Assembly: GCA_964418595.1 (NCBI GenBank)
Contig: CAYQMF010000002.1
Span: forward strand, 41,723 to 105,722
Length of the DNA: 64,000 nucleotides
DNA from: an uncultured candidatus Brocadiaceae bacterium
GTDB taxonomy: Bacteria > Planctomycetota > UBA1135 > UBA2386
Reading direction: 5' to 3'
Positions 10,467 through 54,513 of the stretch are shown here, piece by piece (position 1 is the stretch's first letter; each line of letters opens with the position of its first letter). The notes under the pieces were generated by a model. It was not told where the DNA came from and made no database searches. It was given only the letters and a program-made list of their open reading frames with translations. Both the position numbers and the translations under genes were made by a program.

Positions 10467-10496
10467 ATTAGCGAGGAAACGCACGCCCCAGGTCAA
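10467..10496 (-). promoter_or_regulatory. Candidate sigma-70-type promoter for the pilin gene
   Basis: In - strand sense: TTGACC (plus 10491-10496), an 18-nt spacer, then GCTAAT (plus 10467-10472). This is about 35 nt upstream of the GTG start, with SD AAGGAG at plus 10442-10447. The -35 element overlaps the stop of the upstream TPR gene. Confidence 0.35.
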
Positions 10497-14354: not shown

Positions 14355-15448
14355 CGCTTCTTGCCGACCAGAGCCGATGTCGCGTTCGGACGCTGCGCCA
14401 GCCGCTCGAGATCCGAGAGGTCGGTGGAGTGGTTGATGGCATCCTCCCAGGTGATGTGGCCGCCCCGGAACAGGTCGTAGAGCGACTGGTTCATCGTCCG
14501 CATTCCGAACTGGCCACCGGTCTGCACGATCGATGCGATCTGGTGCGCCTTGTTCTCGCGGACGAGCGCGCGCACGGCCGGCGTACAGATCAGGATCTCC
14601 GATGCCAAAGCCCGGCCGCGACCATGCGCGCGCGGCACGAGTTGCTGGCAGATCACCGCCTGTAGGGCGAACGACATCATCGTGCGGATCTGCTGCTGCT
14701 GATGTGCCGGGAAGACGTCGACGACGCGGTTGACGGTCTGCACGACATCCGAGGTGTGCAGCGTGCCGAACGTCAGGTGACCGGTCTCGGCAAGGGTCAG
14801 CGCCGCCTCGATCGTCTCGAGGTCACGCATCTCGCCCACCAGGACGACGTCGGGGTCCTGGCGGACGACCGAGCGCAGCGCAGCGCCGAACCCGTGTGTA
14901 TCCGAGCCGACCTCGCGCTGGTTGATGAGGCAGCTCTTGTTGCCGTGCAGGAACTCGATCGGGTCCTCGATGGTGACGATGTGGCCCTGCTGCGACTGGT
15001 TGATGTGGTCGACCAGTGCCGCCAGGGTCGTGGACTTGCCGGAGCCCGTCGCGCCGGTGCACAGCACGAGACCGCGGTTCAGGGCGCAGATGTCCTCGCA
15101 GACCTTCCGGGGCAGACCCACCTGCTCGAAGTTGAAGACTTCGACGGGGATGATGCGAAGCACCGCGGCGATCGTGCCGCGCTGGATGAACGCGTTGGTC
15201 CGGAAGCGACCGAGGTTGGCGACGCCGAACGAGAAGTCCAGCTCCCAGTGCTTCTCGAACTTCGCGATCTGGTCGGTCGACATCACCGAGTAGATCAGCT
15301 TCTTGCTGACCTCCGGGGTGAGCGGCGGATAGTCGGTGTCGATCAGCCTGCCATCGACGCGCACCTTGGCAGGGCCGCCGACCGAGAGATGAAGGTCAGA
15401 GCCCCCCTGCTGCACCAGCAGGTTGAGCAGTTCTTCCATCGAAACCAT
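14351..15448 (-). CDS. pilT: Twitching-motility retraction ATPase PilT
   Basis: 365 aa: GGSDLHLSVG, Walker A GATGSGKSTT, VVLVGEMRD, TGHLTFGTLHTS and a PilT-type PAVRALVRENKAHQI motif (AIRNLIRE-like). Its stop overlaps the pilB ATG as ATGA. Confidence 0.93.
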   Translation of the reverse strand: MVSMEELLNLLVQQGGSDLHLSVGGPAKVRVDGRLIDTDYPPLTPEVSKKLIYSVMSTDQIAKFEKHWELDFSFGVANLGRFRTNAFIQRGTIAAVLRIIPVEVFNFEQVGLPRKVCEDICALNRGLVLCTGATGSGKSTTLAALVDHINQSQQGHIVTIEDPIEFLHGNKSCLINQREVGSDTHGFGAALRSVVRQDPDVVLVGEMRDLETIEAALTLAETGHLTFGTLHTSDVVQTVNRVVDVFPAHQQQQIRTMMSFALQAVICQQLVPRAHGRGRALASEILICTPAVRALVRENKAHQIASIVQTGGQFGMRTMNQSLYDLFRGGHITWEDAINHSTDLSDLERLAQRPNATSALVGKKR

Positions 15449-15713: not shown

Positions 15714-17744
15714 CTAGTGCTTGGCGGCTTCGACCTCGCGGTGGTGCGCCGCGACGATCTCCTGCTGGATGTTGCCCGGTACCATCTCGAGGTGGGACGG
15801 GCGCATGGTGAAGGACCCCTCACCTGCGGTGATCGACCGCAGATGTGTCGCGTAGTCCTGCATCTCCTTGAGCGGCACCTCGGCCCGGATGATCTGGATG
15901 CCCTCCTGCGTCTCCATGCCCGACATGCGGCCACGGCTCGTGGACAGGTTGCCTGCCACCTCGCCCGTGAAGCGCTCGGGGATCGAGATCTCGACCGTCA
16001 TGTACGGCTCGAGCAGGATGGGGCGCGCCTTGGTGAAGGCGTCCGCGATCGCGCGTTCGCCGGCGATCTGGAACGAGATCTGGTCCGAGTCGACGTCGTG
16101 GAACTTGCCGTCGTAGACCTCGACCTGCAGGTCCTGCACGACGCAGCCCGCGAGCGGCCCGTGCGCGAGGAACTTGCGAACGCCCTTCTCGATCTCCGGG
16201 ATGAACTGCTTGGGGATGGAGCCGCCGACGACGGCGTTGACGAACTCGAATCCGGCGCCCCGCTCGAGCGGCGCAATCCGGAGGTAGACCTCGCCGAACT
16301 GGCCGCGCCCGCCACTTTGCTTCTTGTGCCTGTGGTGCCCGTCGGCCTTGGCCGTGATCGTCTCCTTGTAGGCGATCCGCGGCGCGTGCGTGGTGGTGCC
16401 GATGCCATAACGACGTTTGAGCCGAGCCAGATGCACGTCCAGATGCAGCGGGCTCATGCCTGCGATCACCAACTCGCCGGTCAGTTCGTCGCGACGGATG
16501 TGGAGGGTCGGATCCTCGGTGTGGAGCTTCTCGATGCCCTGCCCGATCTTCTGCTCGTCCCCGCGCGACGCCGGTTGCACCGCGAGCGAATACACCGGCG
16601 GCGGGAAGCTCGGCGTCGGAAAGCGGAGGGGAGCTCCGTCCGCGGTGACCGTGTCGCCGTGGTTGAGCGATTCGATCTTCCCCACGCAGAAGAGATCGCC
16701 GACGCTCACCTCGTCCGCCGGCTTGGGTTCGTGGCCCTTCATCACGAGCAGCCCGCCCACCTTCTCGTGCTTCTCGGTGCGGACGTTGAGGAAACCGGCG
16801 TCCGCCTTCACATGCCCGCGCAGACAGCGCAGGTAGCTCATCCGCCCGACGTACGGGTCGACCACGACACGGTAGACGAAGGCCGCGAATGGCCCCTCGT
16901 AGGTGGGCTCGACCAGCTGATCGAAAACGTCGGTGCCCGGCTTCGCCGCGCCGCGCGGACCGAACGACAGGGGCGATGGCAGCACGCCCCCGATCACATC
17001 CAGGAACTCGGCGACGCCGAGGAGCTTGGGCGGTGAGACGACGAACAGGGGCACGATCCGCCCCTTGGCGACCGCACCCGGCAGCTTCGCGCGAACCACC
17101 TGGGGATCGAGTGTGCCCGACTCGAGGAACGCCTCCAGCAGGACGTCGTCCGACTCGGCAACGCGCTCGGTGATCCGCTCCGCGTAGCCCGCTGCCGCCG
17201 GCCCCTGCCCGTCGAGCACCTTGTGCACCGCCGAAAACGATGCGCCGGAGTGGTCGGGGTACGTGAACGGCACGACGATGTCGCCGAACACACCCTGCAG
17301 TTCGGCCAGCGTGGCCTCGAAGTTCGCCGTCTCGGCCTCCATGTGCGTGACCACGATGGCCCGCCCGACGCCTGCGGTCGTCGCCTCCTGCCACAGCCTG
17401 CGCGCGTGAAACGAGAGACCCGCGGCCGCGTTGACGCACAGGATGCCTGTCTCTACGACGCGCAGCGCGGAGATCGCATCGCCCAGGAAGTCCTGGTGTC
17501 CGGGCGTGTCGACCATGTTCAGGTTGATGCCGCCGACCGGGAAGCCAAAGAGGTGGGAGCACAACGTGTGCTTCCGCTCCTTCTCCTCCGCCTCCTGGTT
17601 GCCGAAGCTGGTTCCCGCGGCAGAGTCCCCGTGCCGCGACGCGACCTTCGTCGCGAACGCGATCGCATCGATGAGGGCCGTCTTGCCTGAATACGAGTGT
17701 CCGAAGAGAGCGACGTTACGAAGCGTTTCCGAACGGGCGGTCAT
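15714..17744 (-). CDS. Elongation factor G paralog with degenerate G1 and G4 nucleotide-binding motifs
   Basis: ORF 15714..17759; the ATG at 17744 (MTARSETLRN) is preferred over the GTG at 17759. All EF-G domains are recognisable (DTPGHQDF; HKKQSGGRGQFGEV; VGGSIPKQFIPEIEKG; LEPYMTVEISIPERFTGEVAGNLSTSRGRM; LRSITAGEGSFTM). However, G1 reads GHSYSGKT (canonical AHxDxGKT) and G4 reads THME (canonical NKxD; plus 17337-17348, reverse complement ACG CAC ATG GAG). Confidence 0.85.
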   Translation of the reverse strand: MTARSETLRNVALFGHSYSGKTALIDAIAFATKVASRHGDSAAGTSFGNQEAEEKERKHTLCSHLFGFPVGGINLNMVDTPGHQDFLGDAISALRVVETGILCVNAAAGLSFHARRLWQEATTAGVGRAIVVTHMEAETANFEATLAELQGVFGDIVVPFTYPDHSGASFSAVHKVLDGQGPAAAGYAERITERVAESDDVLLEAFLESGTLDPQVVRAKLPGAVAKGRIVPLFVVSPPKLLGVAEFLDVIGGVLPSPLSFGPRGAAKPGTDVFDQLVEPTYEGPFAAFVYRVVVDPYVGRMSYLRCLRGHVKADAGFLNVRTEKHEKVGGLLVMKGHEPKPADEVSVGDLFCVGKIESLNHGDTVTADGAPLRFPTPSFPPPVYSLAVQPASRGDEQKIGQGIEKLHTEDPTLHIRRDELTGELVIAGMSPLHLDVHLARLKRRYGIGTTTHAPRIAYKETITAKADGHHRHKKQSGGRGQFGEVYLRIAPLERGAGFEFVNAVVGGSIPKQFIPEIEKGVRKFLAHGPLAGCVVQDLQVEVYDGKFHDVDSDQISFQIAGERAIADAFTKARPILLEPYMTVEISIPERFTGEVAGNLSTSRGRMSGMETQEGIQIIRAEVPLKEMQDYATHLRSITAGEGSFTMRPSHLEMVPGNIQQEIVAAHHREVEAAKH

Positions 17745-17843
17745 GCAAGTCCTTTCCACTCAGGTGGGCGGCGCAGCCTACCGTAGAGGTTCAGCCCTCG
17801 CACCCGTTTCCTCTGCCCGCTCGGCAAGTAGAAAGCGGTCCCA

Positions 17844-17895
17844 TCCTGGTGACCCGGCCAGGTGATCCAGCCAGGTGATCCCGCCAGGTGATGGC
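17844..17895. repeat. Four tandem 13-bp repeats in the OmpA-like / EF-G-like intergenic region
   Basis: tcctggtgacccg | gccaggtgatcca | gccaggtgatccc | gccaggtgatggc. In - strand sense the units read (G/T)GGATCACCTGGC, and each carries a CCWGG core. Confidence 0.9.
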
Positions 17896-17927
17896 GATCG
17901 GAGACCCTACGGACGCCCTCGCGCCGA

Positions 17928-18611
17928 TCAGCGCGGCTCGCCGACGACGATTTCGACGCGGCGATTCTTGGACTTGGCCGCGTCGCTGTTGCCGGAGAGC
18001 TTCGGGTCGTAGGGTCCGAAGCCCACGACGATGACCTGGTCCGCGGGCATCCCGCACTTGTCGACCAGGTAGCCCGCGACGACATCGGCGCGCTCCGCCG
18101 AGAGGTGGCGGTTGCTCCGAAATCGCCCCTTCGTCTTGTTGATCGGATCCGTGTCGGTGTGGCCCTCCACGTAGATCCGGCGGTCGGGGTAACGGCGCTT
18201 CAGCACCGCGGCGACGCGCTCGAGGACGGAGCCGGCAGCCGGCTTGAGGTCTATGCTTCCCGAGGCGAAGGTCACCTCGTTCTCGATCCCGATCGAGACG
18301 TTGCCGCGGCGGTAGCCGACGTCGAGATCCTTGAGTTCGTCCTGCACCTGCTGGATCTCGTCCTTCTTGGTGCCGGCGGCCTCCGTGGTCCCCCCGGCGA
18401 GGCGGTCGCGAAGGGCTTGCGCCTCGTCCCGCGCCGCCTTCTCACGACGCTCGGCGTCCTTCGACGCGGCGCGCAGTTGCGCATTGGAGTTCTCGAGCTG
18501 GCTGATCTTGAGATCGCGCTCGTGCAGCATCTGCTGGTAGGTGGTGGTGCAGCCCGCGAACGCGAGCAGGCAGGGAGCCGCGAGGCGGCACAGCGTGGAT
18601 CGAAGCGACAT
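17928..18611 (-). CDS. OmpA/MotB-family peptidoglycan-binding lipoprotein with N-terminal coiled coil
   Basis: Signal peptide plus lipobox (LLAFAGC). A coiled-coil-like segment follows (LKISQLENSNAQLRAASKDAERREKAARDEAQALRDRL). The OmpA_C motifs are present: IYVEGHTDTDPI, SNRHLSAERADVVAGYL, NRRVEIVV. Confidence 0.88.
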   Translation of the reverse strand: MSLRSTLCRLAAPCLLAFAGCTTTYQQMLHERDLKISQLENSNAQLRAASKDAERREKAARDEAQALRDRLAGGTTEAAGTKKDEIQQVQDELKDLDVGYRRGNVSIGIENEVTFASGSIDLKPAAGSVLERVAAVLKRRYPDRRIYVEGHTDTDPINKTKGRFRSNRHLSAERADVVAGYLVDKCGMPADQVIVVGFGPYDPKLSGNSDAAKSKNRRVEIVVGEPR

Positions 18612-18643
18612 GTGTCCTCCCAGGTGTGTGTGTTATGGGCTGG

Positions 18644-19588
18644 CTAGGGGCTGCGCCCCCGCTTCACGATGACGACGAGCAAGAGAACTGCGACGATGGC
18701 CAGCACGAGCAGCAGGAGCGGACTCGCCGGGTTGGCGCGCTGCCAGGTTGGCCAGGTGACGAACAAGAACTCCTGGACGAACTCGCCGACGAACATCGAC
18801 AGGAGTGCGCCGGCGACCAGGAACGGACCGAAACAGATGAACAGATCGCCCGTCACGAGACGGTGAGCGACGCCGACGATCGCGCCGAGCGCGCAGGCGA
18901 GGAAGAACGTCAGCAGGACGTCCTGCCAGCCGACGAATGCGCCGATCGCAGCCATCAGCTTCACATCGCCGAAGCCCATGGCTTCTTGACGGAACAGCCA
19001 CGACGACACGGCTCGCACCGTCCAGGTGAGCGCCGCACCGGCGCTCATCCCAGCCAGACTGAAGAGCAGTGCGCGCGCCTCCGACGAGACACCGCGGATC
19101 CCGAGATCCCCGTAGGCTGCCGGGATCACCAGCGACCCCAGCACGCCGAGGACCATGGCCGGGATCGTCAGGCGATCGGGTAGCAACCGATGATCGATGT
19201 CGATGAACGTGCACGCGATCAGCGCACTGACGAAGATGGCGTGCAGGACGAAGGCTCCGGTCCCCGGCCACGCGGGGGGCCAGGCCGCGAGACCCGATGG
19301 CGAGAAGACCGCGAGCAGCCAGAAGACCAACGCCGTGATCGCCTCGACAAGCGGATAGCGCCAGGCGATGCGACCGCCGCAGCACGCGGCCTTGCCCCGC
19401 AGGACGACCCAACTCACGACGGGGATGTTCCAGCGGGCCGGGATCGGCGCACGGCAGTGCGGGCAATGCGAGCGTCGACCACCGCTCGTGAACGTGCCGT
19501 GCGGCAAGCGCCAGATGACGACGTTCAGGAAGGAGCCGATGCAAGCGCCAAGCGCCGCGGCGATCGCCTGCCCAGCCAAGTCTGTCAT
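18644..19588 (-). CDS. pilD: Prepilin peptidase (A24 family, PilD/GspO)
   Basis: ORF 18644..19636 trimmed to ATG 19588 (MTDLAGQAIAA). It has GSFLNVVIWRLP, the zinc-type CPHCRAP...CCGGRI motif, and catalytic-Asp contexts FIDIDHRLLPD and GFGDVKLMAAIGAFVGW. Confidence 0.92.
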   Translation of the reverse strand: MTDLAGQAIAAALGACIGSFLNVVIWRLPHGTFTSGGRRSHCPHCRAPIPARWNIPVVSWVVLRGKAACCGGRIAWRYPLVEAITALVFWLLAVFSPSGLAAWPPAWPGTGAFVLHAIFVSALIACTFIDIDHRLLPDRLTIPAMVLGVLGSLVIPAAYGDLGIRGVSSEARALLFSLAGMSAGAALTWTVRAVSSWLFRQEAMGFGDVKLMAAIGAFVGWQDVLLTFFLACALGAIVGVAHRLVTGDLFICFGPFLVAGALLSMFVGEFVQEFLFVTWPTWQRANPASPLLLLVLAIVAVLLLVVIVKRGRSP

Positions 19589-19774
19589 ACCCGCCCGCCA
19601 AGATTCCGTACCTCTGCGCCAACGATCGCCCGACACCCGCAGGTCGAGACCCCGCGCGGCCCTGGTCCTGACCGACCATTCGAGCCACCCGTGGTTTGGC
19701 GCGACGCGTGGAAGTTAGCGCGCGGGCGCCGGGTGTAAAGGCCGCGCGCCGGGCGGAGGCTGCTTTCTCGCGCC

Positions 19775-21658
19775 CTACCGCACGACGAGCGCGATCGCCG
19801 CGACCGACGGCAACTCGTCGAGATCCCGCGCGACATCGGCGCGCAGCACGAATCGGACGAACCCGCCCGCGGGGATCTCGGACACGGACTCGGCAGGTTG
19901 CGCCGGGGACCAGGCCTCGCGACGGTCGTCGATCCGGGTCGGATCGATCGGATGCGCAGGTGCGGTCTGGACCAGGACCTGGATCGCTCCGCGCGCCCCC
20001 TTCACTTCGACGCCGAAGGGGCCTCGGTGCCACGGCGGCACGCGCTGCCATTCGGTGACGGCCTCCGCACGGGCCGGCTCCTTGCCCGCCCACCCGGTCG
20101 TCATCCGGACCTGGACCGGGGTCCCGCGCTGGATCGCACCTTTCAGCTCGTGCTCCCCAGCTACGACCGTCCGGGGGGGCACCCGGCCGTCGAGGTGGAT
20201 TCCGCCCCCTGCGACCAAGGCCAGCGCCGGCCCAAGGCTCGGGTCACCCTCATGCACGTGAGCTACTCGACCCCCGATACGGATGTCGCCCCCGGCGATC
20301 AGCGTGCAACCGGCGACGCCGGCCAGTTCGGTCTCCACGAGCCAACTTCCGAGGGTGGGGTCCCACGGCGGCCCCATCGCCGTCTCCAGAAGCAGCTCGC
20401 CGTCGATGCGGATGGCGCCCGAGACCAACAGGCGCAGCGGGCCAGGCACGCCGGCGATCGTCAGCCGGACACCCTCGGGGATCTCGAGCGAGGCAAGGCT
20501 CACTACGGCCCCCTGTGCGTCGAACCGCGCGGGTGGGCTCCACCGGACCGAGGCGGTGGGGCGCAACGGACCGAGTTCTCCTTCGCCGGCCGCAAGCCGA
20601 ACCAGCGGCGTGATGCGGTTTCCGTCGCGAACCTCGAAGCCAGGGCGCGCCGGGTCGACCGGTGTGAGGACCGGCTGGTCCGTGGCCGCGACCTCGAACA
20701 CACGCGCGTGCGAGCCGGGCTGAACGTGGACCTGCAACCGCTGCCCGCCAAAGCGGGCCGCCGATCGGATCGGACGGCCGCGGTAGTCGACCAGGGCGTG
20801 CGGGCCTTCCTGGGCGATCAAGAGGTCGACGTTGTCATCGGCCTGCAGCGGCGGATCGGCGCTCAATTGCAGCGAGACGGTGCTCCCGAAGAACCGATCC
20901 GAAGCGTCCGGCACGATGGTGGCGCTGCGCACCGATACGCGCCGCAACGCCTGCGCCACGCCATCCCACGCATGCACGACGAACGCCGCGGGGGTCACGG
21001 ACGGTGGCGATGGCGGCAGCGTGAAGTGCAACCGGAGTTCGCCGGTCTCCATCAGCGCGTCGAGCCGACGCGCTGGGTCGAGGGTGAATGGCTCGTCCCC
21101 CATGCCCACCGGCAGGAGCGGATGCGCGTAGTCGTCGCGGCCGGAGAGCCCGACGGTCCGGAACGGCCGTCGCACGGCGTGCTCGAGAACCCGCCCGTCT
21201 CGGCTCCGCACCGCGTTCGTCTGGGGGTACCCGGCGATCTCCAGCGTGTAGTCCGAGTCCGGTCGCAGCGTCCCGTCGCTCAGGCTCGGGGTGATCGGAG
21301 GACGGGGACGAACGGACAGGGACTGGGAACCGACGTCGATCCCGGCCGGCGCGACAGCATGACCCTGGGAGTCGACAACGCGTACGGTGTCCGGGGTCAC
21401 CGAAAGAGGCTCGATCGGCTTCGAGAAGTAGACGGTGATCTCCTGGTTCAGGATGACTCGTTCGCCGTCGGGCTTGATCCGCACCGCGGTGAACCCCATG
21501 GCGCCTGACGATCGGCGCTCCTCGCACCCGGCGAAGACGGCCACGGTGACCGCAATGGGGATTCGTAGGTGCCAGGACACGGGCGAGTGGACGGTAACGT
21601 CCAGCAGGAGCCGCCGCTCCCTGGCCTTTCTGGCTGGCACTGGCGGCGGCCAGCTCAT
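19775..21658 (-). CDS. Lipoprotein with Ig-like (SbsA-like) domains and a beta-solenoid-like C-terminal half; member of the giant-lipoprotein family
   Basis: 627-aa ORF with lipobox VAVFAGC. It has an Ig-like module ITVYFSKPIEPLSVTPDTVRVVD and the family segment VVSLASLEIPEGVRLTIAGVPGPLRLLVSGAIRIDGELLL. The C-terminus is FVRFVLRADV..VAAIALVVR. The exact start is uncertain (long n-region). Confidence 0.8.
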   Translation of the reverse strand: MSWPPPVPARKARERRLLLDVTVHSPVSWHLRIPIAVTVAVFAGCEERRSSGAMGFTAVRIKPDGERVILNQEITVYFSKPIEPLSVTPDTVRVVDSQGHAVAPAGIDVGSQSLSVRPRPPITPSLSDGTLRPDSDYTLEIAGYPQTNAVRSRDGRVLEHAVRRPFRTVGLSGRDDYAHPLLPVGMGDEPFTLDPARRLDALMETGELRLHFTLPPSPPSVTPAAFVVHAWDGVAQALRRVSVRSATIVPDASDRFFGSTVSLQLSADPPLQADDNVDLLIAQEGPHALVDYRGRPIRSAARFGGQRLQVHVQPGSHARVFEVAATDQPVLTPVDPARPGFEVRDGNRITPLVRLAAGEGELGPLRPTASVRWSPPARFDAQGAVVSLASLEIPEGVRLTIAGVPGPLRLLVSGAIRIDGELLLETAMGPPWDPTLGSWLVETELAGVAGCTLIAGGDIRIGGRVAHVHEGDPSLGPALALVAGGGIHLDGRVPPRTVVAGEHELKGAIQRGTPVQVRMTTGWAGKEPARAEAVTEWQRVPPWHRGPFGVEVKGARGAIQVLVQTAPAHPIDPTRIDDRREAWSPAQPAESVSEIPAGGFVRFVLRADVARDLDELPSVAAIALVVR

Positions 21659-21706
21659 GAGCCGGAACGCTCTCGCGGGAGCGCTCCGGCCGCGGCGTGC
21701 ACCGGC

Positions 21707-24700
21707 TTACTGCGGCGCGCGGACCCGATACACGAGCGCCAGACTCCGGAGGCTGGGGCGCTTCGGCGAGTTCGCGGCGATGTCGTTCTCCATGATCAAC
21801 CGGAAGTTCAGGAACTGCGGCAGGAGCCCGTTCAACGGGTTGCGCAGCGTGCTGATCTGCTCGAGGTCGACGTACGGAGTCATCCCCTCCACGGGCACCC
21901 GGGGGTCGCTGCTCGCGCCGGGATTCGCCATCGCGTAGCGGAACGCTTCACACGCATAGAACGGGTTCAGCAGGTTCTGCCGGTTCATCGAGCGGTTCTC
22001 GGTCAGACGGTTCCAGACGCCGGGACGGGTGATCGTCTCCACGCCCCGCACCTCGAGGGCGATCGACGTTCCCACCGGCTGGCTCTCGAGCGGCGGATCC
22101 ATGACCGACACGACGTCGACGGCGCGGCGCGTGGACACACCGGAGAAGTCAGGCACGCCGGCCCGGTCGTTGAGGCCCGTCCAGGGTACCGAGATGCTCG
22201 CGGGGTCGAGATCGTGCTGGTTCGGCTTCTGCGTATCGAAGAACCCGAAGGTCACCATGGACACGCGGCGTACGAAGTCGGCCTGCGCCCAGTACAGGTG
22301 GTCGTTGTATCCAGGCACCGTCGTCAAGCCGTAGATGATGTCGGTGGAGCCGGCGTCCAGGATGATCGTCCCGCGCGCCACGGGCTCACGCACCGGATCG
22401 ATGAGAACCTGGCTGCCGACGCTGTTCACGGACCCGGCGCTCATCACGGTGAAGCTCGGGTAGTCGAACCCGGCGCACGACAGCGCGGGCCCGGCCAGGT
22501 TGTACTGGCGCGCCCAGTGTGGCACTGGCGATGCCGGCGGCGGCGGGACCTTGCCCAGGTTGAAGTAACCCCAGTACGGAGACTGGTGCCCGTTGATACC
22601 GACGTAGGCGATGTGCATGCGGTTGACGCCGCGCGCCGCGCCGTTCGCCGGATCGTCCGGCCACAGGTTGAACTCCATCAGGAGCGGCAACGCGATCGGA
22701 TCCATGTCGCGCTGCCGGTCGCCGTTGAAGTCGCCGACGTCAGCGACGTGGATGCCTGACGCGGTGACAAAGGTCTGGCCGTTGACCACCGGGAACACGT
22801 TCTCCTCCCACGGCGATGACACGCTGGTCGTGTTGTCCTTGGGCGGGAACGTACTCTGGGTCGGATCTTGCGCGCCGCCGAGGCCGGTCGCGATCTGCAA
22901 CTGGGTGTCCCAGGACGCCAGCCGTTGGTCGCGCCAGGTGAAGGTGCGCGTGAACTTGGGATACGGCGTGTAGGTGTTCTCGGTCGACGAGCGGAACGCG
23001 TCGCCAGGGTTCACCGTGTACGCCTTGTCCTTCACGACCTCGACCATCACCCCGTTGAGCGGGTTGGCGGTGAACGTCGTGGACAGGCCCGAGAGCAGGC
23101 TCGAGCAGTCGACGCGACAGTTCGGCGCGCCTGGGCCGGCCGGGTAGGTGAGGTTCGCACGGAGATCAGGCCGCTTGGCAGCGTGCCCCATCCGCAGCGT
23201 GTAGCGGTCGAACTGATCGAAGAGGACGGCGCGGTTGTTCCACGGCGCCCAGTACATCTGCTCGACGTCGATCATCATGGTGTCCGCGTCGTGGTACCCG
23301 AGGCCGAAGTCGTCCTCACGGTACGTGACCATCTCGCGCACACCGCGCGGGTTGTGCGGACCACCGATGCCACCGTAGTCCAGGGGCACTGCCGGAGGTT
23401 GGAACGGGTTCGGCGGCGGCGCCGGCGCCGTCGACTGCGTCATGGATGGAGTCGTGTACAGCGGTCCCCAGATGAGGTGGCTCGGCGGGCGAGGCGGCAT
23501 GGCCGCCGCGTCGCCTGGGTCGAAACAATCGCCCTTGTCACCGCGCGTGATGCTGGGCAGCGTCCGCGCATCGGCGATCTTGCTGAACCGGCTGACGGGC
23601 GCACTCCACAGCCGCCCCTCGCGGAGCTCGAACTGCCCGAAGAAGTCCGGCGACCCTGGCTTGGTGCCATCCTCGTCCGTGGCCTCGAATCGGATGACCC
23701 GCTGCCCGACCAGGTTCTCCGGCGAGGCGGGGTCGAGCGTATAGCCGATGGAGAAGCTCTGGCGCTGCTCGGTCCCGACGCGGCGGTCGAAGATGTCGAG
23801 GCCGTTGCCGGAGAGATCACGTGGGCTGAGCGCATCGCCCATCACGTGCAGCCAGTACTGCTCGGTCTGACTCGCGACGTGGTTGTGGCCCATCGGCAGG
23901 TTCAGCCGCAGCGTGGTACCGTCCTGGCTCACGTCCTCGAGGTTGGTAGCGATCATCGACAGCCCTGCAACCTTGGGCTCGCGCAGCATGGTGGTCAGCG
24001 CGGCATCGGGGAGATAGCGGTTGCCGATCAGCACGTTGCCCGACCGGTCGACCGTGCTCATGTCCAGCGGCTCGCTGAACTTCACGGCGACGGAAGCGAT
24101 CGGGTTGATGCGCGTTCCGGGCGCGATCGGCAGCCGGGTCTGTGGATCGATGCGCGGCGTCGCCGGCTCGAACTGCACGAACTCGTACCGACGCGTCGAG
24201 TCCGACACGGCGAAGGAGCCGTTCGTGTAGGGCAGGTTCTCGTAGTAGTGCACGCGAACCGAGCAGTCCGCGCCGAGCGGGAGCGAACTCGCCTGGAACG
24301 CGGCGATCGCGCCGGATGCCCCGACCACCTGCAGGTGCGTGACCCTCACGCGAACCGTGTCCGCGTTGCCGCCGTCGGTGCCGTCCGCGGCCTTGCCGAG
24401 GTTGGGGTTGTTGGCGAGCGTGCCGCTGTTCGACACGTCCATGTTCATCAGGATCTCGGCGCGGATGCGGACCGGACCTGCCGCCGTCTGGACCGTCTGC
24501 GACAGGAAATCACCGGAGCGCAGGCGCGCGACGGTCGGAACTTCGCCGGGTCCGAGCGGCAGACCCTCCGTGACGCCCAGCGGGCCATCCACGAAAGGCA
24601 CGCGGCCGCGGAGGGCGACCTTCGCCCCGCGCTTGTTCAGCGTGACCTCGCGGTTCGCCACGTCGATGCTCTGGATGCCCATCGGCACGTCCGCCACGAT

Positions 24701-25657
24701 GGAGGGAGGATCGATGTCGAGCAGCGAACCCACCCGACCGTCCTGGGCGTTCCCGGTCCGGAAGTCCCGGATGACCGAGGGCAGGCCGGTGCGATCCCGG
24801 CCATTGAGTTGCGGCACGGAGTCGGCCTTGACCCCGAGGCTCTCGCCGCTGATCTGCACCGGAATGGCGACGCGGATGTTCGCCACCACGTTGGTCGCGC
24901 TGATGGGCAGGCCGGAGCTCGGGCGCACGCCGGAAGCCTCGCCGCCGATGATCGTGGGATCGACGACGATCGAGTCGCCCTGCACCACGACGCGGTACGG
25001 CAGTGCCCGGAAGGCCTGCTGTGGGCTCACGGTCGCCGGGTCGTCGACGATCTCGAGGACCTGCAAGGCGGTCGGATTCGCGGCGAAGAAGCTGCGGTCG
25101 ACCGACAGCGTGCGTGTGAACTTGAGTTTCATCGCGGCATTGCGCGGAACCACGGGAATCGGCTGAGCCGTGGTGTTCTGACCGCTGAACGCCGCCGCGA
25201 CCGGCACGAGACTGCCGGTCGCCCGGCTCAGTGCCGCGTCGAAGCGTGCCTTCTCGTCCGCGTTCTGGTCGTCCCACAGGATGACGAGTTCCTCGTGCCC
25301 GACGTTGACGTCGAAGGCGCGGAACAGGAAGTCCGCATTCGGGTTCTCTTCGCCCAGCGCGTCGAACAACGACTGGGACTCGACCCGCGGGTCGATCACG
25401 ACATCCGTCGCAACCCGCACGGGCACGCGATTGGTCACATCACGTCGCTGGCCGTTGCGTGCGTCGACGCGTCGGTACGCGTAGAGGTCGACCAGGCGCC
25501 CGAACTCGACCGACGAGAGCCGAAGTTCCGAAGAGGTCCCGCCGGGCCCATCGTTCCGGGTACGGCCATCGCAGGCCGCGACCAGCGCGGCGGCGGCAAA
25601 GCAGCCCAACAGCGTTCGCGTTGGTTTACGCATAGGATTCATCACGCGTCTTTCCAT
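21707..25657 (-). CDS. Very large secreted lipoprotein (about 1310 aa), no recognisable catalytic motif
   Basis: 1316-aa ORF. Plausible starts are at 25657, 25642 and 25633 (MRKPTRTLLGCFAAAALVAAC, signal plus lipobox). An Ig-like module is present (SVAVKFSEPLDMSTVDRSGNV). The C-terminal module FLNFRLIMEND..LRSLALVYRVRAPQ resembles that of the neighbouring paralogs. Composition is natural along the whole length. Confidence 0.85.
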   Translation of the reverse strand: MERRVMNPMRKPTRTLLGCFAAAALVAACDGRTRNDGPGGTSSELRLSSVEFGRLVDLYAYRRVDARNGQRRDVTNRVPVRVATDVVIDPRVESQSLFDALGEENPNADFLFRAFDVNVGHEELVILWDDQNADEKARFDAALSRATGSLVPVAAAFSGQNTTAQPIPVVPRNAAMKLKFTRTLSVDRSFFAANPTALQVLEIVDDPATVSPQQAFRALPYRVVVQGDSIVVDPTIIGGEASGVRPSSGLPISATNVVANIRVAIPVQISGESLGVKADSVPQLNGRDRTGLPSVIRDFRTGNAQDGRVGSLLDIDPPSIVADVPMGIQSIDVANREVTLNKRGAKVALRGRVPFVDGPLGVTEGLPLGPGEVPTVARLRSGDFLSQTVQTAAGPVRIRAEILMNMDVSNSGTLANNPNLGKAADGTDGGNADTVRVRVTHLQVVGASGAIAAFQASSLPLGADCSVRVHYYENLPYTNGSFAVSDSTRRYEFVQFEPATPRIDPQTRLPIAPGTRINPIASVAVKFSEPLDMSTVDRSGNVLIGNRYLPDAALTTMLREPKVAGLSMIATNLEDVSQDGTTLRLNLPMGHNHVASQTEQYWLHVMGDALSPRDLSGNGLDIFDRRVGTEQRQSFSIGYTLDPASPENLVGQRVIRFEATDEDGTKPGSPDFFGQFELREGRLWSAPVSRFSKIADARTLPSITRGDKGDCFDPGDAAAMPPRPPSHLIWGPLYTTPSMTQSTAPAPPPNPFQPPAVPLDYGGIGGPHNPRGVREMVTYREDDFGLGYHDADTMMIDVEQMYWAPWNNRAVLFDQFDRYTLRMGHAAKRPDLRANLTYPAGPGAPNCRVDCSSLLSGLSTTFTANPLNGVMVEVVKDKAYTVNPGDAFRSSTENTYTPYPKFTRTFTWRDQRLASWDTQLQIATGLGGAQDPTQSTFPPKDNTTSVSSPWEENVFPVVNGQTFVTASGIHVADVGDFNGDRQRDMDPIALPLLMEFNLWPDDPANGAARGVNRMHIAYVGINGHQSPYWGYFNLGKVPPPPASPVPHWARQYNLAGPALSCAGFDYPSFTVMSAGSVNSVGSQVLIDPVREPVARGTIILDAGSTDIIYGLTTVPGYNDHLYWAQADFVRRVSMVTFGFFDTQKPNQHDLDPASISVPWTGLNDRAGVPDFSGVSTRRAVDVVSVMDPPLESQPVGTSIALEVRGVETITRPGVWNRLTENRSMNRQNLLNPFYACEAFRYAMANPGASSDPRVPVEGMTPYVDLEQISTLRNPLNGLLPQFLNFRLIMENDIAANSPKRPSLRSLALVYRVRAPQ

Positions 25658-25673
25658 GAGTGTGGGTCCGGGA

Positions 25674-28600
25674 TCAGAACTGGAACGGCAACGCCAGTTC
25701 GCGGAGCGCCGGGCGTGGGGTGGATGGGGTCAGGGTGCGGGTGGTGTCGATGTTCCCCGTCGAGTTGTCTTCGGTGAACAGCATGTTGAAGACCACGTCG
25801 TACTGCACATAGCGGTAGCGACCGTCGCGGATCTGGCGCAGCAGCTCCGGGCGATCCAGGCTCAGGCCGTACTCGAAGCCGGTCGCGGGGTAACGCGTCG
25901 CCGGGTCACGCGGGTCGCGGTAGAACGCGAAGCCGATCTGGGTGTTGCCACGAGGCACACGCCGACCGTTCCGCGAGATGGTGGGCCCGAGTCCGGGCAC
26001 GCCATCGGTCTCGACCTGGAAGAACTTGGCGGCGAGCCGGATCGTGCTCACGGTCGCGGCAGGCAGTGCCCCGGCCCGCGCGTCGAGATGGATGTTGCGG
26101 TCGTCGTGACCCAGCACCCGGTACTCGGCGACCTGCGTCGTGCCGCTCAGCAGCTGCGCCATGTAGCCCGTGTAGCGCCCAGGGATCTGCCCCAGCAACG
26201 CCGACGCTTGGGCCAACGTCACGCGGAAGGACGGCCGCCCGTTGAAGGTCGCCGCGGTGTCGATCTGCGCGACCGGCGACTCGCTGCCCGCTACCGCAGG
26301 GAAAGTCGCGACGCCGTTGTCGTCGTACGCGACGTAGCCCTTGGTCGGACTCGCATCATCGGACGAGGTCCCGGCGAACAGATAGGTCGGACCGCGCATC
26401 AGGTTCGTGAACGGGTCACCACCCTGGTTGCCCCGCTCCGTGATCGCGCGCACGCCCTGGGGCACGTTCGTGGGCTCGCGGTCCACGCGGCCCATGTCGA
26501 TCAGGCGCGAGCGCACACGGGTCTTCGGGCCGTACGGCAACGGCAACAGGATCGGCGGAGGCTTGATGTCCCCCATCCCGAACCCGTTGTTCGGAACGTT
26601 GATCACCACGCCACGATCGTTGATGCGGGCACCCGCGTCATCGCGGTAGCCGCGCCAACCGAGGTAGCGCACCTTGTCGGCGACCGGCGCGGGGTTGCCC
26701 GCGTCCAGATCCCCGTTCGTGTTGTAGAAGTAGATGTTGTCGTCGAAGAACGAGCCCGTGCTGTCGGCATCGTTGGATGAAGGCGTGAGCAGTTGGACGA
26801 CGCCGTTACCGCCGAAGCCGCCGACCGGCTGGTCGCCGATGTCGTTGTGCCACGAACCCGGCGTCTCCGGCCGGTCCGCGGTCTGGTAGGCCGTCGGGTA
26901 CTTGCCGCGGATGGGCATCAACGCGTACGGGGTCCGCAGGCCGACGTTGCCGTCGGCGGTGATCGCGAAGCTGTAGGCGCCGTTGCTGCGCTGGGAGACG
27001 CTGGCACCGCCGTAGGTTTCGCCGTGCTTCACCACGTCGATGCGCGGCGCCATGATGATGACCGTGCCACCGGAGCCGGCGCCGCCACCGCCGCCCGCCG
27101 GCGAACTCGTGCTCGCGCCGGACGCACCGTTGGGCGCGCCACCGCCGCCTGCGCCACCGTTGGCGCTGATCGAACCCGCGGCGCGAATCCGCACCTTGCC
27201 AAGGCACTTGATGATCAGGATGCCGGCGCCACCGCCACCGCCACCGCCCTTGGCGTCGGTGCGCCACTGGCTGACGCTGCTGCAGTCGGTTGCACCGTCA
27301 CCGCCACCACCGCCGCCGGAACCGCCACGCGCGGCGGCCAGTTCGCCCGAGGTCCGGAAGCCAGGCACGCCGTTCGTGAACCGCAGAGAGGTGCCGACGA
27401 AGTTGTTGTTCTCGTCGGGATCGACGAAGCCGATCGGCCCCGCCGCACCGGGGATGACGCCGGGCTGGTTCGCGTTCTTGTTCTGACAGCCGACGCGACC
27501 GTCGCCGCCGCGCATGGCGACATCGGGCGGGTTGACCGCCAGGAACCGCGTGTAGAAGTCGGGGTCGCCCTTGCTGGCGTACGAGCCGCCGCCACCACCG
27601 CTGCCGATGCGACAGATGTTGCCCGTGGTGCCCTGGCAGGAGTGACGGCCGCCTTCCCCACCGCCGCCGACCGTGTTCCCCGGACCGAAGCCGGACTCGG
27701 CGACCTCTGTCCTTCCGGTCGTGTTGACGCTGCCGCGTCCGCCATTGCCACCGTTGCACTGACCCACGCCACCCGCCGCGGGCGCGTCCGCGTTGGTGGT
27801 CCGCACGACCTCGCCGTCGCCGCCGTTCACGGTCAGCGAGCCCTCGACATCGAGGTTGCCGGTGATCAACCAGACCATCGGCTTCGTGCCTTCGCCGATG
27901 ACCTGGTAGCCCGCCGGGATCGTGACGTTCTTGAACTCGAAGACGCCGCCCGCGACGTTGACGACGCGCCCGGAGCGCATCCGGACCTGGGTGTAGTCCG
28001 TGTTGAGGACCGTGCGCAGGTCGGCGGGATCGAAGTCGAGACTCGTGTCGGACCCTTCGAACGCCAGGCTGGCGCGGACATAGCCTTCGCTCACGTCCGC
28101 GAAGGGCTCGGTGAACGGGGCCGTGAAGTCGACCTCACCAGCCGCCGTGAAGCGTTCGACGAGAGCATCGAACTGGGGCTCGTGACGCGGCTGCACGCGG
28201 AACGAGCCGAACAACGTCGAGTAGGCCTGGTCGGCGACGTTGGACTCGCCCGACATGTCCTCCATCGAGTTCGTGACGATGACGCGGACGAGGGCGTTGT
28301 TCGGCAGCGAGCCGCGCGGACGCAACACCACCATCGCCCCGTCGAGCGAGTTGGACTCGAGGTCGACGTCGGCCGGGATCCACGTCTCTGCACCGCCGAC
28401 GGACGGATCGTCGTATTCCAGATAGACCCGCCCGCGCTTGGCCTTGTCGCGAAGCACCGGGTTGAGCTCGATGCCGCTCGGGACGTTCACGCGCTGCGGG
28501 TTGAGCGGCTGGTCGAAACCGAGGCGCACCTCGAGCGCCGAGTTGTTCACGAAGCTGGGGTCGACGATCAGCTCGCGCGTCACCGGATCGACCGTCGATG

Positions 28601-29177
28601 GCCGCACCTCGAAGCTGGTCCGGCGCGGGCCACCGAGCTTCGTGTTCCGGAACAGCTCCGCGGGCGAGCTGCCGTCCACCGTCGAGAAGTTGAACGAAAC
28701 AGGGACGGTGAGCGACCGGCCGGTCGTGTCGCGCAGGACCGCGCCGTTGCGCGGATCGCCACCCACCAACTGCACGAGGTAGCGCCGGCCGGGCTTGAAC
28801 CCGCCGTTCGTGAACAGATCGTCCGAGGGCAACAGCGGCACGAACTCGAGCCGGCGACCGACCTGCGCATCACCAGGAGTCCGCGTCACGCGGAAGACGC
28901 CGCGCGGTTGCTCCCCGAGGGGGCGCCCGGTCAGGTCGAAGACGGAGAACGAAATCGCGTTGAGGTCCGCGGTCGACGGCTCGACGGCGGTGCTGAAGTC
29001 GAACTGGATCGAGTCGTTCAGGAACAGCTTCGCGTTGTCAGGCGGTGTCACGCGCAGCAGCACGAAGTCGCCGCCAGTCCCGCTCAGGCCCGCCGGGGAC
29101 GAACCCCCGCCACAGCCGACCAGGGACAGGGCGAGCGCGGCCACGGCGAGAGCAATCCGGTTCGTCTTCGGGTTCAT
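25674..29177 (-). CDS. Giant secreted lipoprotein (1167 aa): Ig-like N-terminal modules, IPAG beta-solenoid segment, long poly-Gly run region, conserved C-terminal module
   Basis: ORF 25674..29444 trimmed to ATG 29177 (MNPKTNRIALAVAALALSLVGC). Motifs: VFEFKNVTIPAGYQVIGEGTKPMVWLITGNLDVEGSLTV, GGGGEGGRH, GSGGGGGSYASKG, RGGSGGGGGGDGATDC, KGGGGGGGAGILIIKC, AGGGGGAGSGGTVIIMA. It ends LRELALPFQF. Confidence 0.85.
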   Translation of the reverse strand: MNPKTNRIALAVAALALSLVGCGGGSSPAGLSGTGGDFVLLRVTPPDNAKLFLNDSIQFDFSTAVEPSTADLNAISFSVFDLTGRPLGEQPRGVFRVTRTPGDAQVGRRLEFVPLLPSDDLFTNGGFKPGRRYLVQLVGGDPRNGAVLRDTTGRSLTVPVSFNFSTVDGSSPAELFRNTKLGGPRRTSFEVRPSTVDPVTRELIVDPSFVNNSALEVRLGFDQPLNPQRVNVPSGIELNPVLRDKAKRGRVYLEYDDPSVGGAETWIPADVDLESNSLDGAMVVLRPRGSLPNNALVRVIVTNSMEDMSGESNVADQAYSTLFGSFRVQPRHEPQFDALVERFTAAGEVDFTAPFTEPFADVSEGYVRASLAFEGSDTSLDFDPADLRTVLNTDYTQVRMRSGRVVNVAGGVFEFKNVTIPAGYQVIGEGTKPMVWLITGNLDVEGSLTVNGGDGEVVRTTNADAPAAGGVGQCNGGNGGRGSVNTTGRTEVAESGFGPGNTVGGGGEGGRHSCQGTTGNICRIGSGGGGGSYASKGDPDFYTRFLAVNPPDVAMRGGDGRVGCQNKNANQPGVIPGAAGPIGFVDPDENNNFVGTSLRFTNGVPGFRTSGELAAARGGSGGGGGGDGATDCSSVSQWRTDAKGGGGGGGAGILIIKCLGKVRIRAAGSISANGGAGGGGAPNGASGASTSSPAGGGGGAGSGGTVIIMAPRIDVVKHGETYGGASVSQRSNGAYSFAITADGNVGLRTPYALMPIRGKYPTAYQTADRPETPGSWHNDIGDQPVGGFGGNGVVQLLTPSSNDADSTGSFFDDNIYFYNTNGDLDAGNPAPVADKVRYLGWRGYRDDAGARINDRGVVINVPNNGFGMGDIKPPPILLPLPYGPKTRVRSRLIDMGRVDREPTNVPQGVRAITERGNQGGDPFTNLMRGPTYLFAGTSSDDASPTKGYVAYDDNGVATFPAVAGSESPVAQIDTAATFNGRPSFRVTLAQASALLGQIPGRYTGYMAQLLSGTTQVAEYRVLGHDDRNIHLDARAGALPAATVSTIRLAAKFFQVETDGVPGLGPTISRNGRRVPRGNTQIGFAFYRDPRDPATRYPATGFEYGLSLDRPELLRQIRDGRYRYVQYDVVFNMLFTEDNSTGNIDTTRTLTPSTPRPALRELALPFQF

Positions 29178-29209: not shown

Positions 29210-29584
29210 GACGCTGGGCACGGACCCGCGCGGTCAGCTCCGCCTCGGAGCTTGGGGCACGCGTCGGCCGGGCCAAACGCCAGGGTTGGAAGTCAGCTTG
29301 GGGTCGCGAGATAGGCCCCACCGGAGGCTTCTTTCGTCGCACCAGGGGGGAGAGCTTGCTCAGAAGTCTACCGTCCTCCCGAACACGGTCATCGGCGAAG
29401 TTCGGAAGGCACGGCGTTGCGGTCGACCCGGCGGGGGCAACCACGGGTCAGGGCGCTTTCTTCAAGTCGCGTGCCGCGCCGAGACCGCACGCGACCCAGT
29501 CGTAACCGCCTTTCCTAGCTAAGGATACGGCGAGAGATGGGCAGCGGGTCGCGCACCGGACGCACTTGCCCGTGCGATCCCGCA

Positions 29585-29613: not shown

Positions 29614-30972
29614 TCACCCCGGCTCCGCCGACGCCGAGCGGTACGCGGCGGTCGTCGCCTGCTCCTCCGAGACGAAGTACACCCGCGCTTCCATCTTGAC
29701 GCGCTTCGCGGCGGGCGACCCGACGGCGTGGAAGACGCGGGTCGCGCGATCCCCGAGGACGGCGGCGCGCACCTCCTTGTCGCAGAACCCGCAGGTCAGG
29801 AGCCCGGTCTGCTCGTCCAGGATGCGGAAGTCGCGCACCACGTGCGCGGCGGCCGAGCCGTTGCTGATGCAGCGTTCATTGCGGCAGCGCAAGCCACCTT
29901 CACCATCGAACGTGATCCCCGGCGCGGCGGCAAACTGCGCCGGCGGCGCGGCGTCGAGTTCGATCTTGCCCAGCAGGAAGGCGAGCAACGCCATCCGGAT
30001 CGGCACCCCGAGTTCCGCCTGGCGGAAGTAGACGGCACGGGGATCGTCGTCGAGGTCGTAGCTGATCTCGTCGAGCCGCGGCAGCGGATGCATCACGCGC
30101 ACATCCTTGAACATCGCACCCGCGAGGCTCGCCCCGGAGAGCCGCGGGTACGGGGAGTCGACCTGGGCCATCTCCCCCACTCCGTGTCGTTCGCGCTGCG
30201 CGCGAGTCATGTAGATCGCGTCGATGTGCTGCACCTGCTCGGTGGTCGGCTGCGTGAAGAGTGCCAACTGATGCGGGCGACTCGCGGTCAGGTAGGCCGC
30301 GGAGTTTGCCTTGCCGGCGATGCCCGGCAGGTCACCCATCGACGCCGCCGAGGCGTGCACGCCGAACTGCCGCCGCAGCCGGTCGAGCACGTACTGCGGC
30401 ATCTCGAAGCCGGGGTACGGGATCGTCACGATGTTGGCTCGGAAGCGTGCCAACGCGTAGGCGAACGAGTGGACGGTGCGCGAGTAGCGCAGGTCGCCGC
30501 AAAGGACCACGTCCAGTCCCTCGAGCCGTCCCTTCTCCTTCCACAGCGTGTACAGATCGCAGAGCGTCTGCGTCGGGTGCTCGTGCGACCCATCGCCGCC
30601 ATTGATCACCGGTACGCGCGCGTAGCGGGCGGCCACCCGCGCTGCGCCGTCTTCGGGGTGGCGCACGACGAGGATGTCCGCGTAGGCACCGCCGACGACG
30701 CGCACCGTGTCCGCGAGCGACTCACCCTTGGTGTGGCTGCTGGATGCGGCCTCGGCAACGGAGACGACACCGCCGCCGAGACGCAGCATCGCCGACTCGA
30801 AGCTCAGGCGCGTTCGCGTGCTGGGCTCCAGGAACAGGGTCGCCATGATCACGCCACGACAGAGCGGCGACCACGCGCTCAGGTCGGCGCCGAACTCCTC
30901 GGCGTGCCGGAACAACGCGAGGATCTCGGCGGTTGAGAGATCCTCGATGGAGACCAGACTACGCGGCGGCAT
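29614..30972 (-). CDS. pyrB: Aspartate carbamoyltransferase catalytic chain fused to a PyrI-type zinc domain plus an extra C-terminal tail
   Basis: ATCase motifs STRTRLSFE, HPTQTLCDL and HPLPRLDEI are present. Residues 341-452 extend past the normal PyrB end and contain LRCRNERCISNG..(24 aa)..LTCGFCDKEV, matching the PyrI C-terminal pattern CxNxNCI(S/T)...CxYCEKE. Confidence 0.85.
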   Translation of the reverse strand: MPPRSLVSIEDLSTAEILALFRHAEEFGADLSAWSPLCRGVIMATLFLEPSTRTRLSFESAMLRLGGGVVSVAEAASSSHTKGESLADTVRVVGGAYADILVVRHPEDGAARVAARYARVPVINGGDGSHEHPTQTLCDLYTLWKEKGRLEGLDVVLCGDLRYSRTVHSFAYALARFRANIVTIPYPGFEMPQYVLDRLRRQFGVHASAASMGDLPGIAGKANSAAYLTASRPHQLALFTQPTTEQVQHIDAIYMTRAQRERHGVGEMAQVDSPYPRLSGASLAGAMFKDVRVMHPLPRLDEISYDLDDDPRAVYFRQAELGVPIRMALLAFLLGKIELDAAPPAQFAAAPGITFDGEGGLRCRNERCISNGSAAAHVVRDFRILDEQTGLLTCGFCDKEVRAAVLGDRATRVFHAVGSPAAKRVKMEARVYFVSEEQATTAAYRSASAEPG

Positions 30973-44033: not shown

Positions 44034-44045
44034 GCTGGTTCCACC

Positions 44046-54420: not shown

Positions 54421-54513
<93 letters not shown>

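Follow-up and report, generated by a model that had tools for sequence, protein, structure and literature searches.

Two families of large predicted lipoproteins encoded beside the prepilin peptidase gene of a type IV pilus locus in Planctomycetota

The 64,000-nucleotide (nt) stretch of DNA analysed here (the window; contig CAYQMF010000002.1 of an uncultured planctomycetotal bacterium) carries three genes, LP1, LP2 and LP3, that are predicted to encode large lipoproteins and that lie directly upstream of pilD, the prepilin peptidase gene of a type IV pilus gene cluster; two further genes of this kind, LP4 and LP5, are found at the edge of the window. On the basis of profile comparisons the proteins fall into two families, one comprising LP1, LP3, LP4 and LP5, the other comprising LP2 and a paralog, X, that is encoded in most relatives. 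Judged from sequence searches and predicted structures, the LP1-type and LP2-type proteins are new, confidently folded families of probable surface proteins, restricted to one lineage. The position of the LP genes beside pilD is not peculiar to one genome. We favour, with slightly less than even confidence, the reading that the LP proteins form a lineage-specific lipid-anchored envelope module that is tied to the pilus genes only by position. A sequence-only reading of the window had regarded the first three genes as joined to the pilus operon, as a possible pilus-coupled adhesin or cargo module; its open reading frames, strands and coordinates for the LP genes were confirmed by translation. 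The LP genes and pilD were located as follows (aa, amino acids).

25674-29177, minus strand: LP1, predicted 1167-aa lipoprotein with lipobox LVGC (translation, Big_5)
21707-25657, minus strand: LP2, predicted 1316-aa lipoprotein with lipobox VAAC (translation; no Pfam/NCBIfam match)
19775-21658, minus strand: LP3, predicted 627-aa lipoprotein with lipobox FAGC (translation, profile comparison)
18644-19588, minus strand: pilD, prepilin peptidase (A24_N_bact 1.7e-28, Peptidase_A24 8.4e-23)
1475-4105, minus strand: LP4, 876 aa, LP1-type paralog with lipobox LAGC
1-1434, minus strand: LP5, LP1-type paralog with lipobox FPGC, truncated by the window edge

All five LP proteins were found to contain an N-terminal signal peptide and a lipobox cysteine, and the lipobox was retained in 113/120 LP1, 105/120 LP2 and 18/24 LP3 homologs, in agreement with the lipoprotein nature proposed earlier. 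The proteins thus have the sequence features of Lgt/LspA substrates and are predicted to be acylated. For LP3, the gene call in the source record is 574 aa long and begins past the lipobox; orthologs in which the lipobox is conserved favour a start that gives the 627-aa form, or one close to it. An Asp at position +2 after the lipid-modified cysteine was present in LP2 of the window and in over half of the lipobox-bearing LP2 homologs. In enterobacteria, Asp at +2 keeps lipoproteins such as PulA from the Lol pathway.

Comparison of the LP1 and LP3 families by hhalign gave a probability of 99.2% (E 1.7e-19) over the N-terminal ~430 residues, running through a segment named after its IPAG motif, which had been noticed before and represents real homology. 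The LP1 family matched LP4 with E 1.8e-18 over 686 columns, the glycine-rich part included, and LP4 and LP5 showed 43% identity. LP1, LP3, LP4 and LP5 have in common immunoglobulin-like (Ig-like) domains and the start of a glycine-rich beta-solenoid, and LP3 was shown to be a short, fast-evolving paralog of this type. No kinship between LP2 and the LP1 family was detectable (hhalign probability 43%), and the single family of five members that the sequence-only reading had drawn up holds only when LP2 is set apart. X showed 25% identity to LP2 over the full length and is of lipoprotein size (~1300 aa). A shared two-strand module had been proposed for the C-termini of the complete proteins. This was not upheld by local profile comparison (probability <10%, E 0.005-0.3), in which the best match invariably paired last strand with last strand, below significance. 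The interpretation of this module as the final two strands of a discoidin-type jelly roll was also considered and was rejected, as Pfam gave it no backing.

Word-based searches yielded 288 homologs of LP1, 191 of LP2 and 27 of LP3, all of them unnamed proteins from metagenome-assembled genomes (MAGs) of Planctomycetota, and an exhaustive phmmer search of 1.84 billion representative proteins returned only 220 relatives of LP2. LP1 and LP2 were conserved at ~41-42% identity with many invariant residues, and a metagenome scan with LP4 and LP5 gave a single close relative. No literature on the LP proteins was found.

Big_5 (PF13205, cut-off 23.6 bits) was detected in LP1 (25.5 bits), LP4 (36.0 bits) and LP5 (47.2 bits), and LP3 scored just under the cut-off (22.1 bits); in LP2 no Big_5 match was obtained with Pfam. 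LP1 consists of an N-terminal Ig-like (Big_5) part, the solenoid start with the IPAG segment, a glycine-rich, cysteine-containing middle and a C-terminal beta region. The AlphaFold2 models of LP1 (pLDDT 86.4, pTM 0.79) and of LP2 residues 117-1316 (pLDDT 86.9, pTM 0.80) were both mostly beta. Foldseek searches against the PDB gave matches at domain level only. Those of LP1 were to the Ig-like domains found in L,D-transpeptidases and in two S-layer proteins, SbsC and Sap, and LP2 weakly matched S-layer proteins and a baseplate protein of a phage. Against viral models, the middle of LP1 matched glycine-rich phage fibre and collagen-like proteins (target TM-score <=0.42, E down to 5e-8).

Searches of Pfam, NCBIfam and PDB sequences with the LP proteins, their family profiles and the isolated C-terminal and glycine-rich parts detected Big_5 only. 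No catalytic family was found in these searches, in line with the earlier remark that no catalytic motif could be recognised, and the Foldseek searches with LP1 and LP2 gave nothing more informative than the generic matches above. No TPR or PilP match was found in LP1-3 with Pfam/NCBIfam, their folds being Ig-like or beta and unlike those of pilotins or PilP; Pfam likewise gave no SLH domain in the LP proteins. A hit of LP4 to the gliding protein AgmC was discounted: the N-terminal model scored 21 bits against a cut-off of 275, over the glycine-rich residues 616-680. Among LP1 and LP2 homologs several cysteines were near-invariant and many Gly and Asp residues invariant, and LP2 has in addition many invariant His, Glu and Arg residues besides its Asp. 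Since near-invariant cysteines and invariant Gly and Asp fit folding outside the cytoplasm, the LP proteins probably fold there. Taken together, these sequence features and models point to lipid-anchored, non-enzymatic envelope or surface proteins, of which we infer that they are located at the outer surface.

Relatives were collected by scanning one genome per GTDB species with an LP2 profile. This gave 209 stretches with relatives, the best 80 loci of which (numbered with the prefix L) were analysed, all from Planctomycetota MAGs. The order pyrB-X-LP1-LP2-LP3-pilD-ompA-EF-G-pilT-pilB-pilC(-TPR-pilin) was found in all loci long enough to show it. X sits between pyrB and LP1 in most relatives (for example L001 5728-9672, and most of L007-L084). 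It is absent from the window and its three closest relatives (L005, L006, L067), no remnant of it was detected in the 436-nt pyrB-LP1 spacer of the window, and it has been lost in the window's subclade. The group OM190 corresponds to UBA1135, UBA8108 and GCA-002687715 of GTDB (preprint 10.1101/817700), and the lineage studied here may be the OM190/UBA1135 group.

The junctions pyrB-X (or pyrB-LP1) and ompA-EF-G-pilT were shown to be conserved as strongly as LP3-pilD. Because pyrB and EF-G are equally fixed without any plausible link to pili, the proximity of genes in this block is a weak sign of a common function. EF-G was missing at this place in six relatives and fragmentary in two (L021, L032, L042, L052, L055, L059, L036, L043). 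Tandem duplications were found on deep branches, with the arrangement LP1'-X-LP1-LP2-LP3 in L081 and X-LP1a-LP1b-LP2a-LP2b-LP3 in L072. Besides, second copies were present away from pilus genes, as an LP2-like gene alone in L009, L012 and L079 and as an LP1'-LP2' pair in L014. In L014 (MAG HK-STAS-PLAN-33, 1898-5703) this cassette comes after three genes, paralogous to one another, whose products are secreted proteins of ~340-360 aa with TFQ or LFQ at the end and no Pfam match. Distant LP2 relatives (~1000 aa; L086-L089) had no pilus genes among their visible neighbours, which were sulfatase, esterase, peptidase, FG-GAP and FKBP genes. The neighbourhood with pilus genes that the sequence-only reading had named as a check holds at the pilD locus and does not extend to the secondary cassettes and the distant LP2 relatives.

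Spacers were estimated over the loci of the related species, with the following medians.

pilT-pilB: 2 nt
pilD-ompA: 48 nt
pilB-pilC: 52 nt
pilC-TPR: 61 nt
LP1-LP2: 149 nt
LP2-LP3: 156 nt
LP3-pilD: 197 nt
EF-G-pilT: 206 nt
X-LP1: 216 nt
ompA-EF-G: 233 nt

The block thus splits into tight units (2-61 nt, the pil sub-operons) and loose junctions (149-216 nt around the LP genes). The gaps reported for the window were correct, namely 16 nt for LP1-LP2 (25658-25673), 48 nt for LP2-LP3 (21659-21706) and 186 nt for LP3-pilD (19589-19774); the first two are a trait of the window's own subclade. The OmpA-like gene has a conserved GGGAGG Shine-Dalgarno sequence ahead of its ATG and, given the short median gap, is closely coupled to pilD. 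Two conserved elements were located upstream of LP1 and of pilD, the ATG of which is at 19588-19586 on the minus strand.

29365-29372, minus strand: GGTAGACT box with -10-like TAGACT, located 188 nt before the start codon of LP1
19663-19717, minus strand: pilD leader element within the LP3-pilD spacer, ~95 nt upstream of pilD

Allowing at most one mismatch, GGTAGACT was found upstream of LP1 in 28/55 species loci compared to 2.4 in shuffles, and other genes were not enriched for it. Across relatives L005-L084 it lies 50-220 nt before LP1 and is followed by a C-rich CCCTCTCCC stretch. It is likely to be an LP1 promoter element, and because it occurs even where X lies directly upstream, a separate promoter for LP1, followed by a long 5' leader, is probable. 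A different element, TCCGATACC, was found upstream of LP2 in 22/63 loci compared to 1.6 in shuffles.

The pilD leader contains a -10-like box at 19712-19717, which reads TAACTT in the window and CCGTATGCT in most relatives, and a hairpin (tggtc-GGTCAG-gacca, at 19663-19678 in the window). The hairpin loop, GGGUCAGC, was invariant in 26 species, and its 8-bp stem covaries, two pairs being changed on both sides in 16 and 19 of the 26 sequences. The GGGUCAGC hairpin is followed by a second, GC-rich hairpin with no T-run behind it, seen in the LP3-pilD spacers of L023-L084. The element had no Rfam match, its loop motif was absent from the other intergenic sites of the window, and the element is more probably a leader with a regulatory role than a terminator. 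For this spacer the sequence-only reading had raised the question of a terminator and an independent promoter: a promoter-like box and the covarying hairpin were seen, and a terminator was not predicted. Asked whether LP3 and pilD form one operon, the sequence accordingly gives a mixed reply, with no predicted terminator and a 186-nt spacer holding a conserved promoter-like box and a hairpin. The elements of LP1, LP2 and pilD are all different, and no regulatory motif common to the LP and pil upstream regions was found. Loose spacers (~150-200 nt compared to 2-60 nt) and separate boxes before LP1, LP2 and pilD speak against the view that the LP genes are joined to the pilus operon.

The window has a G+C content of ~69%, and codon-position GC picked out one long run of genes on the minus strand, including all likely genes from 29177 down to 5566, as had been described. 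The remaining genes of the run that bear on the pilus were as follows.

44046-45068, minus strand: pilM (Pfam/NCBIfam)
43389-44045, minus strand: open reading frame at the pilN position (position; no Pfam match)
41939-43372, minus strand: PilO-like gene encoding a long protein (Pfam/NCBIfam)
39854-41911, minus strand: pilQ, secretin (Pfam/NCBIfam)
34279-35400, minus strand: pilT2, second PilT-like ATPase gene (Pfam/NCBIfam)
29614-30972, minus strand: pyrB/pyrI fusion (Pfam/NCBIfam)
17928-18611, minus strand: OmpA-domain lipoprotein gene, with lipobox (Pfam)
15714-17759, minus strand: EF-G homolog (Pfam)
14351-15448, minus strand: pilT (Pfam)
12642-14354, minus strand: pilB (Pfam)
11396-12628, minus strand: pilC (Pfam)
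10493-11386, minus strand: TPR protein gene (Pfam)
9706-10434, minus strand: single prepilin gene (Pfam, prepilin motif)

In the direction of transcription the order is pilM, the pilN-position frame, the PilO-like gene, pilQ, RNase E/G, Obg, pilT2, PDZ, coaX, GTPase and pyrB/pyrI, followed by LP1, LP2, LP3, pilD, ompA, EF-G, pilT, pilB, pilC, TPR and prepilin; pilM, the pilN-position frame, the PilO-like gene, pilQ and pilT2 are thus interspersed among RNase E/G, Obg, coaX, GTPase and pyrB genes. The neighbours named earlier (pilD, OmpA-like, EF-G, pilT, pilB, pilC, TPR and one pilin gene) were confirmed by Pfam/NCBIfam. The list was right for the prepilin peptidase and motor genes and had overlooked pilM, the PilO-like gene, pilQ and pilT2 at 34-45 kb. 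By content (PilB, PilT, PilC, PilD, PilM, PilO, PilQ and a GFxxxE prepilin) the machine is a type IVa pilus. As noted before, minor pilins were absent from the window, where only one prepilin motif was found across all six frames, and no PilY1 domain was detected in the LP proteins (Pfam, E up to 1).

Beyond the prepilin gene lie two glycosyltransferase genes, a membrane-plus-TPR gene, a HEAT gene on the plus strand, LP4 and LP5. The genes just 3' of the pilin gene (5566-9573) encode, in this order, a GT2 and a GT1 glycosyltransferase and a multi-pass membrane protein that has TPR repeats at its C-terminus, an order retained in the close relative L090; they could represent a pilin glycosylation set. 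A cluster of rpoN (sigma-54), hpf and ptsN was located just upstream of pilM (45640-49021), and a scan of the window for sigma-54 promoters showed no enrichment of the consensus. The signal recognition particle (SRP) RNA and two tRNA genes were found at 54239-54661 on the minus strand, beside a second carbamoyltransferase gene (54710-56218, plus strand). Near the LP and pil genes, Rfam gave no riboswitch and no other known RNA.

According to the favoured reading, LP1-LP5 and X would leave the cytoplasm through Sec and receive a lipid at the lipobox cysteine that holds them at the membrane, with tandem Ig-like domains extending the beta-sandwich regions and the glycine-rich beta-solenoid to the outside. 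The LP1-type and LP2-type proteins may work together in a surface structure that serves adhesion or forms a coat, a pairing suggested by the joint duplication or movement of their genes (L081, L072, L014). The genes would have stood beside pilD since the ancestor of the lineage, inside a larger frozen gene block, and in most species would have promoters of their own. What the sequences and models show is how the genes are built, that the products have lipoboxes, how the families are related, which class of fold they have and that the gene order is conserved. Independence of the LP proteins from the pilus is what the separate upstream elements, the loose spacers, the equally fixed pyrB and EF-G and the cassettes without pilus neighbours weigh for, as far as sequence can indicate.

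Several observations weigh against this reading. LP3 was followed by pilD in 63/63 loci extending past LP3, the seven loci with LP3 but without pilD all stopping at a contig edge, and this adjacency persists where identity has fallen to 33-35% for LP2 and to 56% for PyrB. At the same divergence the order of genes nearby does change, since S12-S7 genes replace pilT2 in L001 and coaX is missing in L003. (The S12-S7 genes of L001 have no EF-G gene after them.) The spacers between LP1, LP2 and LP3 are very short in the window (16 and 48 nt) and in its closest relatives, and no intrinsic terminator was predicted on the minus strand from LP1 to pilT, the LP3-pilD spacer included; therefore read-through into pilD is possible. 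A whole pilus machine is clustered in the region, which nevertheless has neither minor pilins nor a tip adhesin. The closest described arrangement, sslE-pppA-yghG of Escherichia coli, is a functionally coupled one. Finally, the surface location, the LP1-LP2 pairing and the adhesive or coat-like role are themselves deduced. Coupling of the LP proteins to the pilus is possible.

One form of coupling, which we consider unlikely without dismissing it, is that the LP proteins are cargo in the manner of SslE or PulA, folding in the periplasm, needing a prepilin-peptidase-dependent machine and a secretin to reach the surface, and staying there as lipid-anchored adhesins. The gene order matches that of E. 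coli (giant lipoprotein, ~190-nt spacer, peptidase, small lipoprotein, machine), and secretion of SslE requires PppA and the genes of the beta type II secretion system (T2SS-beta; PMC3707838). The invariable adjacency of LP3 and pilD is as this explanation would have it, and large, compact, cysteine-containing proteins would be suited to extracytoplasmic folding. The dispersed LP copies are compatible with it too, such families often having paralogs encoded elsewhere, and so is the Asp at +2 of the LP2 homologs; PulA likewise has Asp at +2. The machine, however, is of the type IV pilus type, with two PilT-like ATPases, PilM and a PilO-like protein, and without GspC/L/M or a pseudopilin set. 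Moreover, the LP proteins showed no homology to SslE, PulA or other known cargo, the promoters appear separate without a shared regulatory motif, and pyrB and EF-G are conserved in the block equally strongly.

Alternatively, the LP proteins might be parts of the machine, as a lipid-anchored tip or adhesin complex replacing minor pilins and PilY1, or as a collar around the secretin, which we regard as improbable. Such a role would fit a region that has an otherwise whole machine with no minor pilins and no PilY1-like gene, the invariant position beside pilD, and a conservation of LP1 and LP2 that is better than that of many surface proteins. In a more specific version, to which we give an equally slim chance, X-LP1-LP2-LP3 would be a new pilus accessory, either an outer-membrane complex in place of the minor-pilin/PilY1 tip or one docking pilus and secretin; if true, this would account for LP genes never parting from pilD in the lineage. 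Copy number nevertheless shifts by tandem duplication and loss (X lost; two LP1 and two LP2 genes in L072), as is typical of surface proteins and less so of core machine parts, and extra LP cassettes occur without pil genes. The proteins also lack a pilin-like N-terminus and any PilY1-, TsaP-, PilF- or PilP-like domain, and minor pilins may be encoded elsewhere in the genome. It is more doubtful still that LP2 or LP1 is an unrecognised extracellular polysaccharide or protein hydrolase whose position is unconnected with pili. The invariant His, Asp, Glu and Arg of LP2 would be in keeping with this, as would one distant LP2 relative located among sulfatase, SASA esterase, peptidase and sugar-transporter genes, but no catalytic family or fold emerged from Pfam, NCBIfam, PDB sequences or Foldseek despite confident models, and invariant acidic residues may equally suit calcium sites of surface proteins.

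If the LP proteins depend on the pilus machine, they would extend the SslE/PulA theme of lipoprotein cargo to type IV pili, in a phylum about whose cell envelope little is known, and would hint at a mode of surface attachment. Without a pilus link, the analysis still defines two new lineage-restricted surface-protein families and uncovers a conserved, probably regulatory hairpin in the leader of pilD. That strict adjacency also holds for unrelated housekeeping genes calls for caution in inferring function from neighbourhood alone.

Among known systems, S-layer proteins (SbsC, Sap and that of Nitrosopumilus) came closest in structure to the Ig-like parts of LP1 and LP2; they are likewise large, non-enzymatic and mostly beta. 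The matches cover single domains (TM-score ~0.07-0.1 over the query), and the anchor of the LP proteins is predicted to be a lipid and not an SLH or wall-binding module. Phages and giant viruses have glycine-rich fibre and collagen-like proteins with which the middle of LP1 aligns; these are predicted structures and share no sequence family with it. Like the PilY1/PilC tip adhesins, the LP proteins are large, are not pilins and have their genes in type IV pilus loci. PilY1/PilC mediate adhesion and have a beta-propeller domain, adjacent minor pilins and an ordinary signal peptide, whereas the LP proteins lack these and have a lipoprotein signal instead; no PilY1 structure was among the listed Foldseek matches of LP1 and LP2. 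Klebsiella PulA (pullulanase), which the Pul type II secretion system exports, resembles the LP proteins in being a large lipoprotein whose gene lies next to secretion genes, with the same Asp at +2 as over half of the LP2 homologs. It is a GH13 enzyme encoded divergently from the pul operon, whereas no glycoside hydrolase signature was found in the LP proteins.

The sequence-only reading had regarded the arrangement as one not described for type IV pilus or type II secretion loci. A like layout is present in E. coli K-12, where yghJ (sslE, encoding a 1520-aa lipoprotein), a 197-nt spacer, pppA, the pilotin lipoprotein gene yghG (AspS) and the gsp genes follow each other on one strand. In both cases a giant lipoprotein gene directly precedes the prepilin peptidase gene and is followed by a small lipoprotein gene and machine genes, and the E. 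coli spacer compares to 186 nt for LP3-pilD in the window and to the lineage median of 197 nt. SslE is an M60-like metalloprotease, whereas in LP1-3 neither a peptidase domain nor any resemblance to SslE in sequence or fold was found (Pfam, NCBIfam, PDB, Foldseek). The machine is a type II secretion system in E. coli and a type IV pilus with retraction ATPases (two PilT-like) in the window, and the small lipoprotein is the AspS pilotin in the former and an OmpA-type peptidoglycan binder in the latter. The E. coli SslE locus has one large lipoprotein gene, compared to three to five in the lineage described here.

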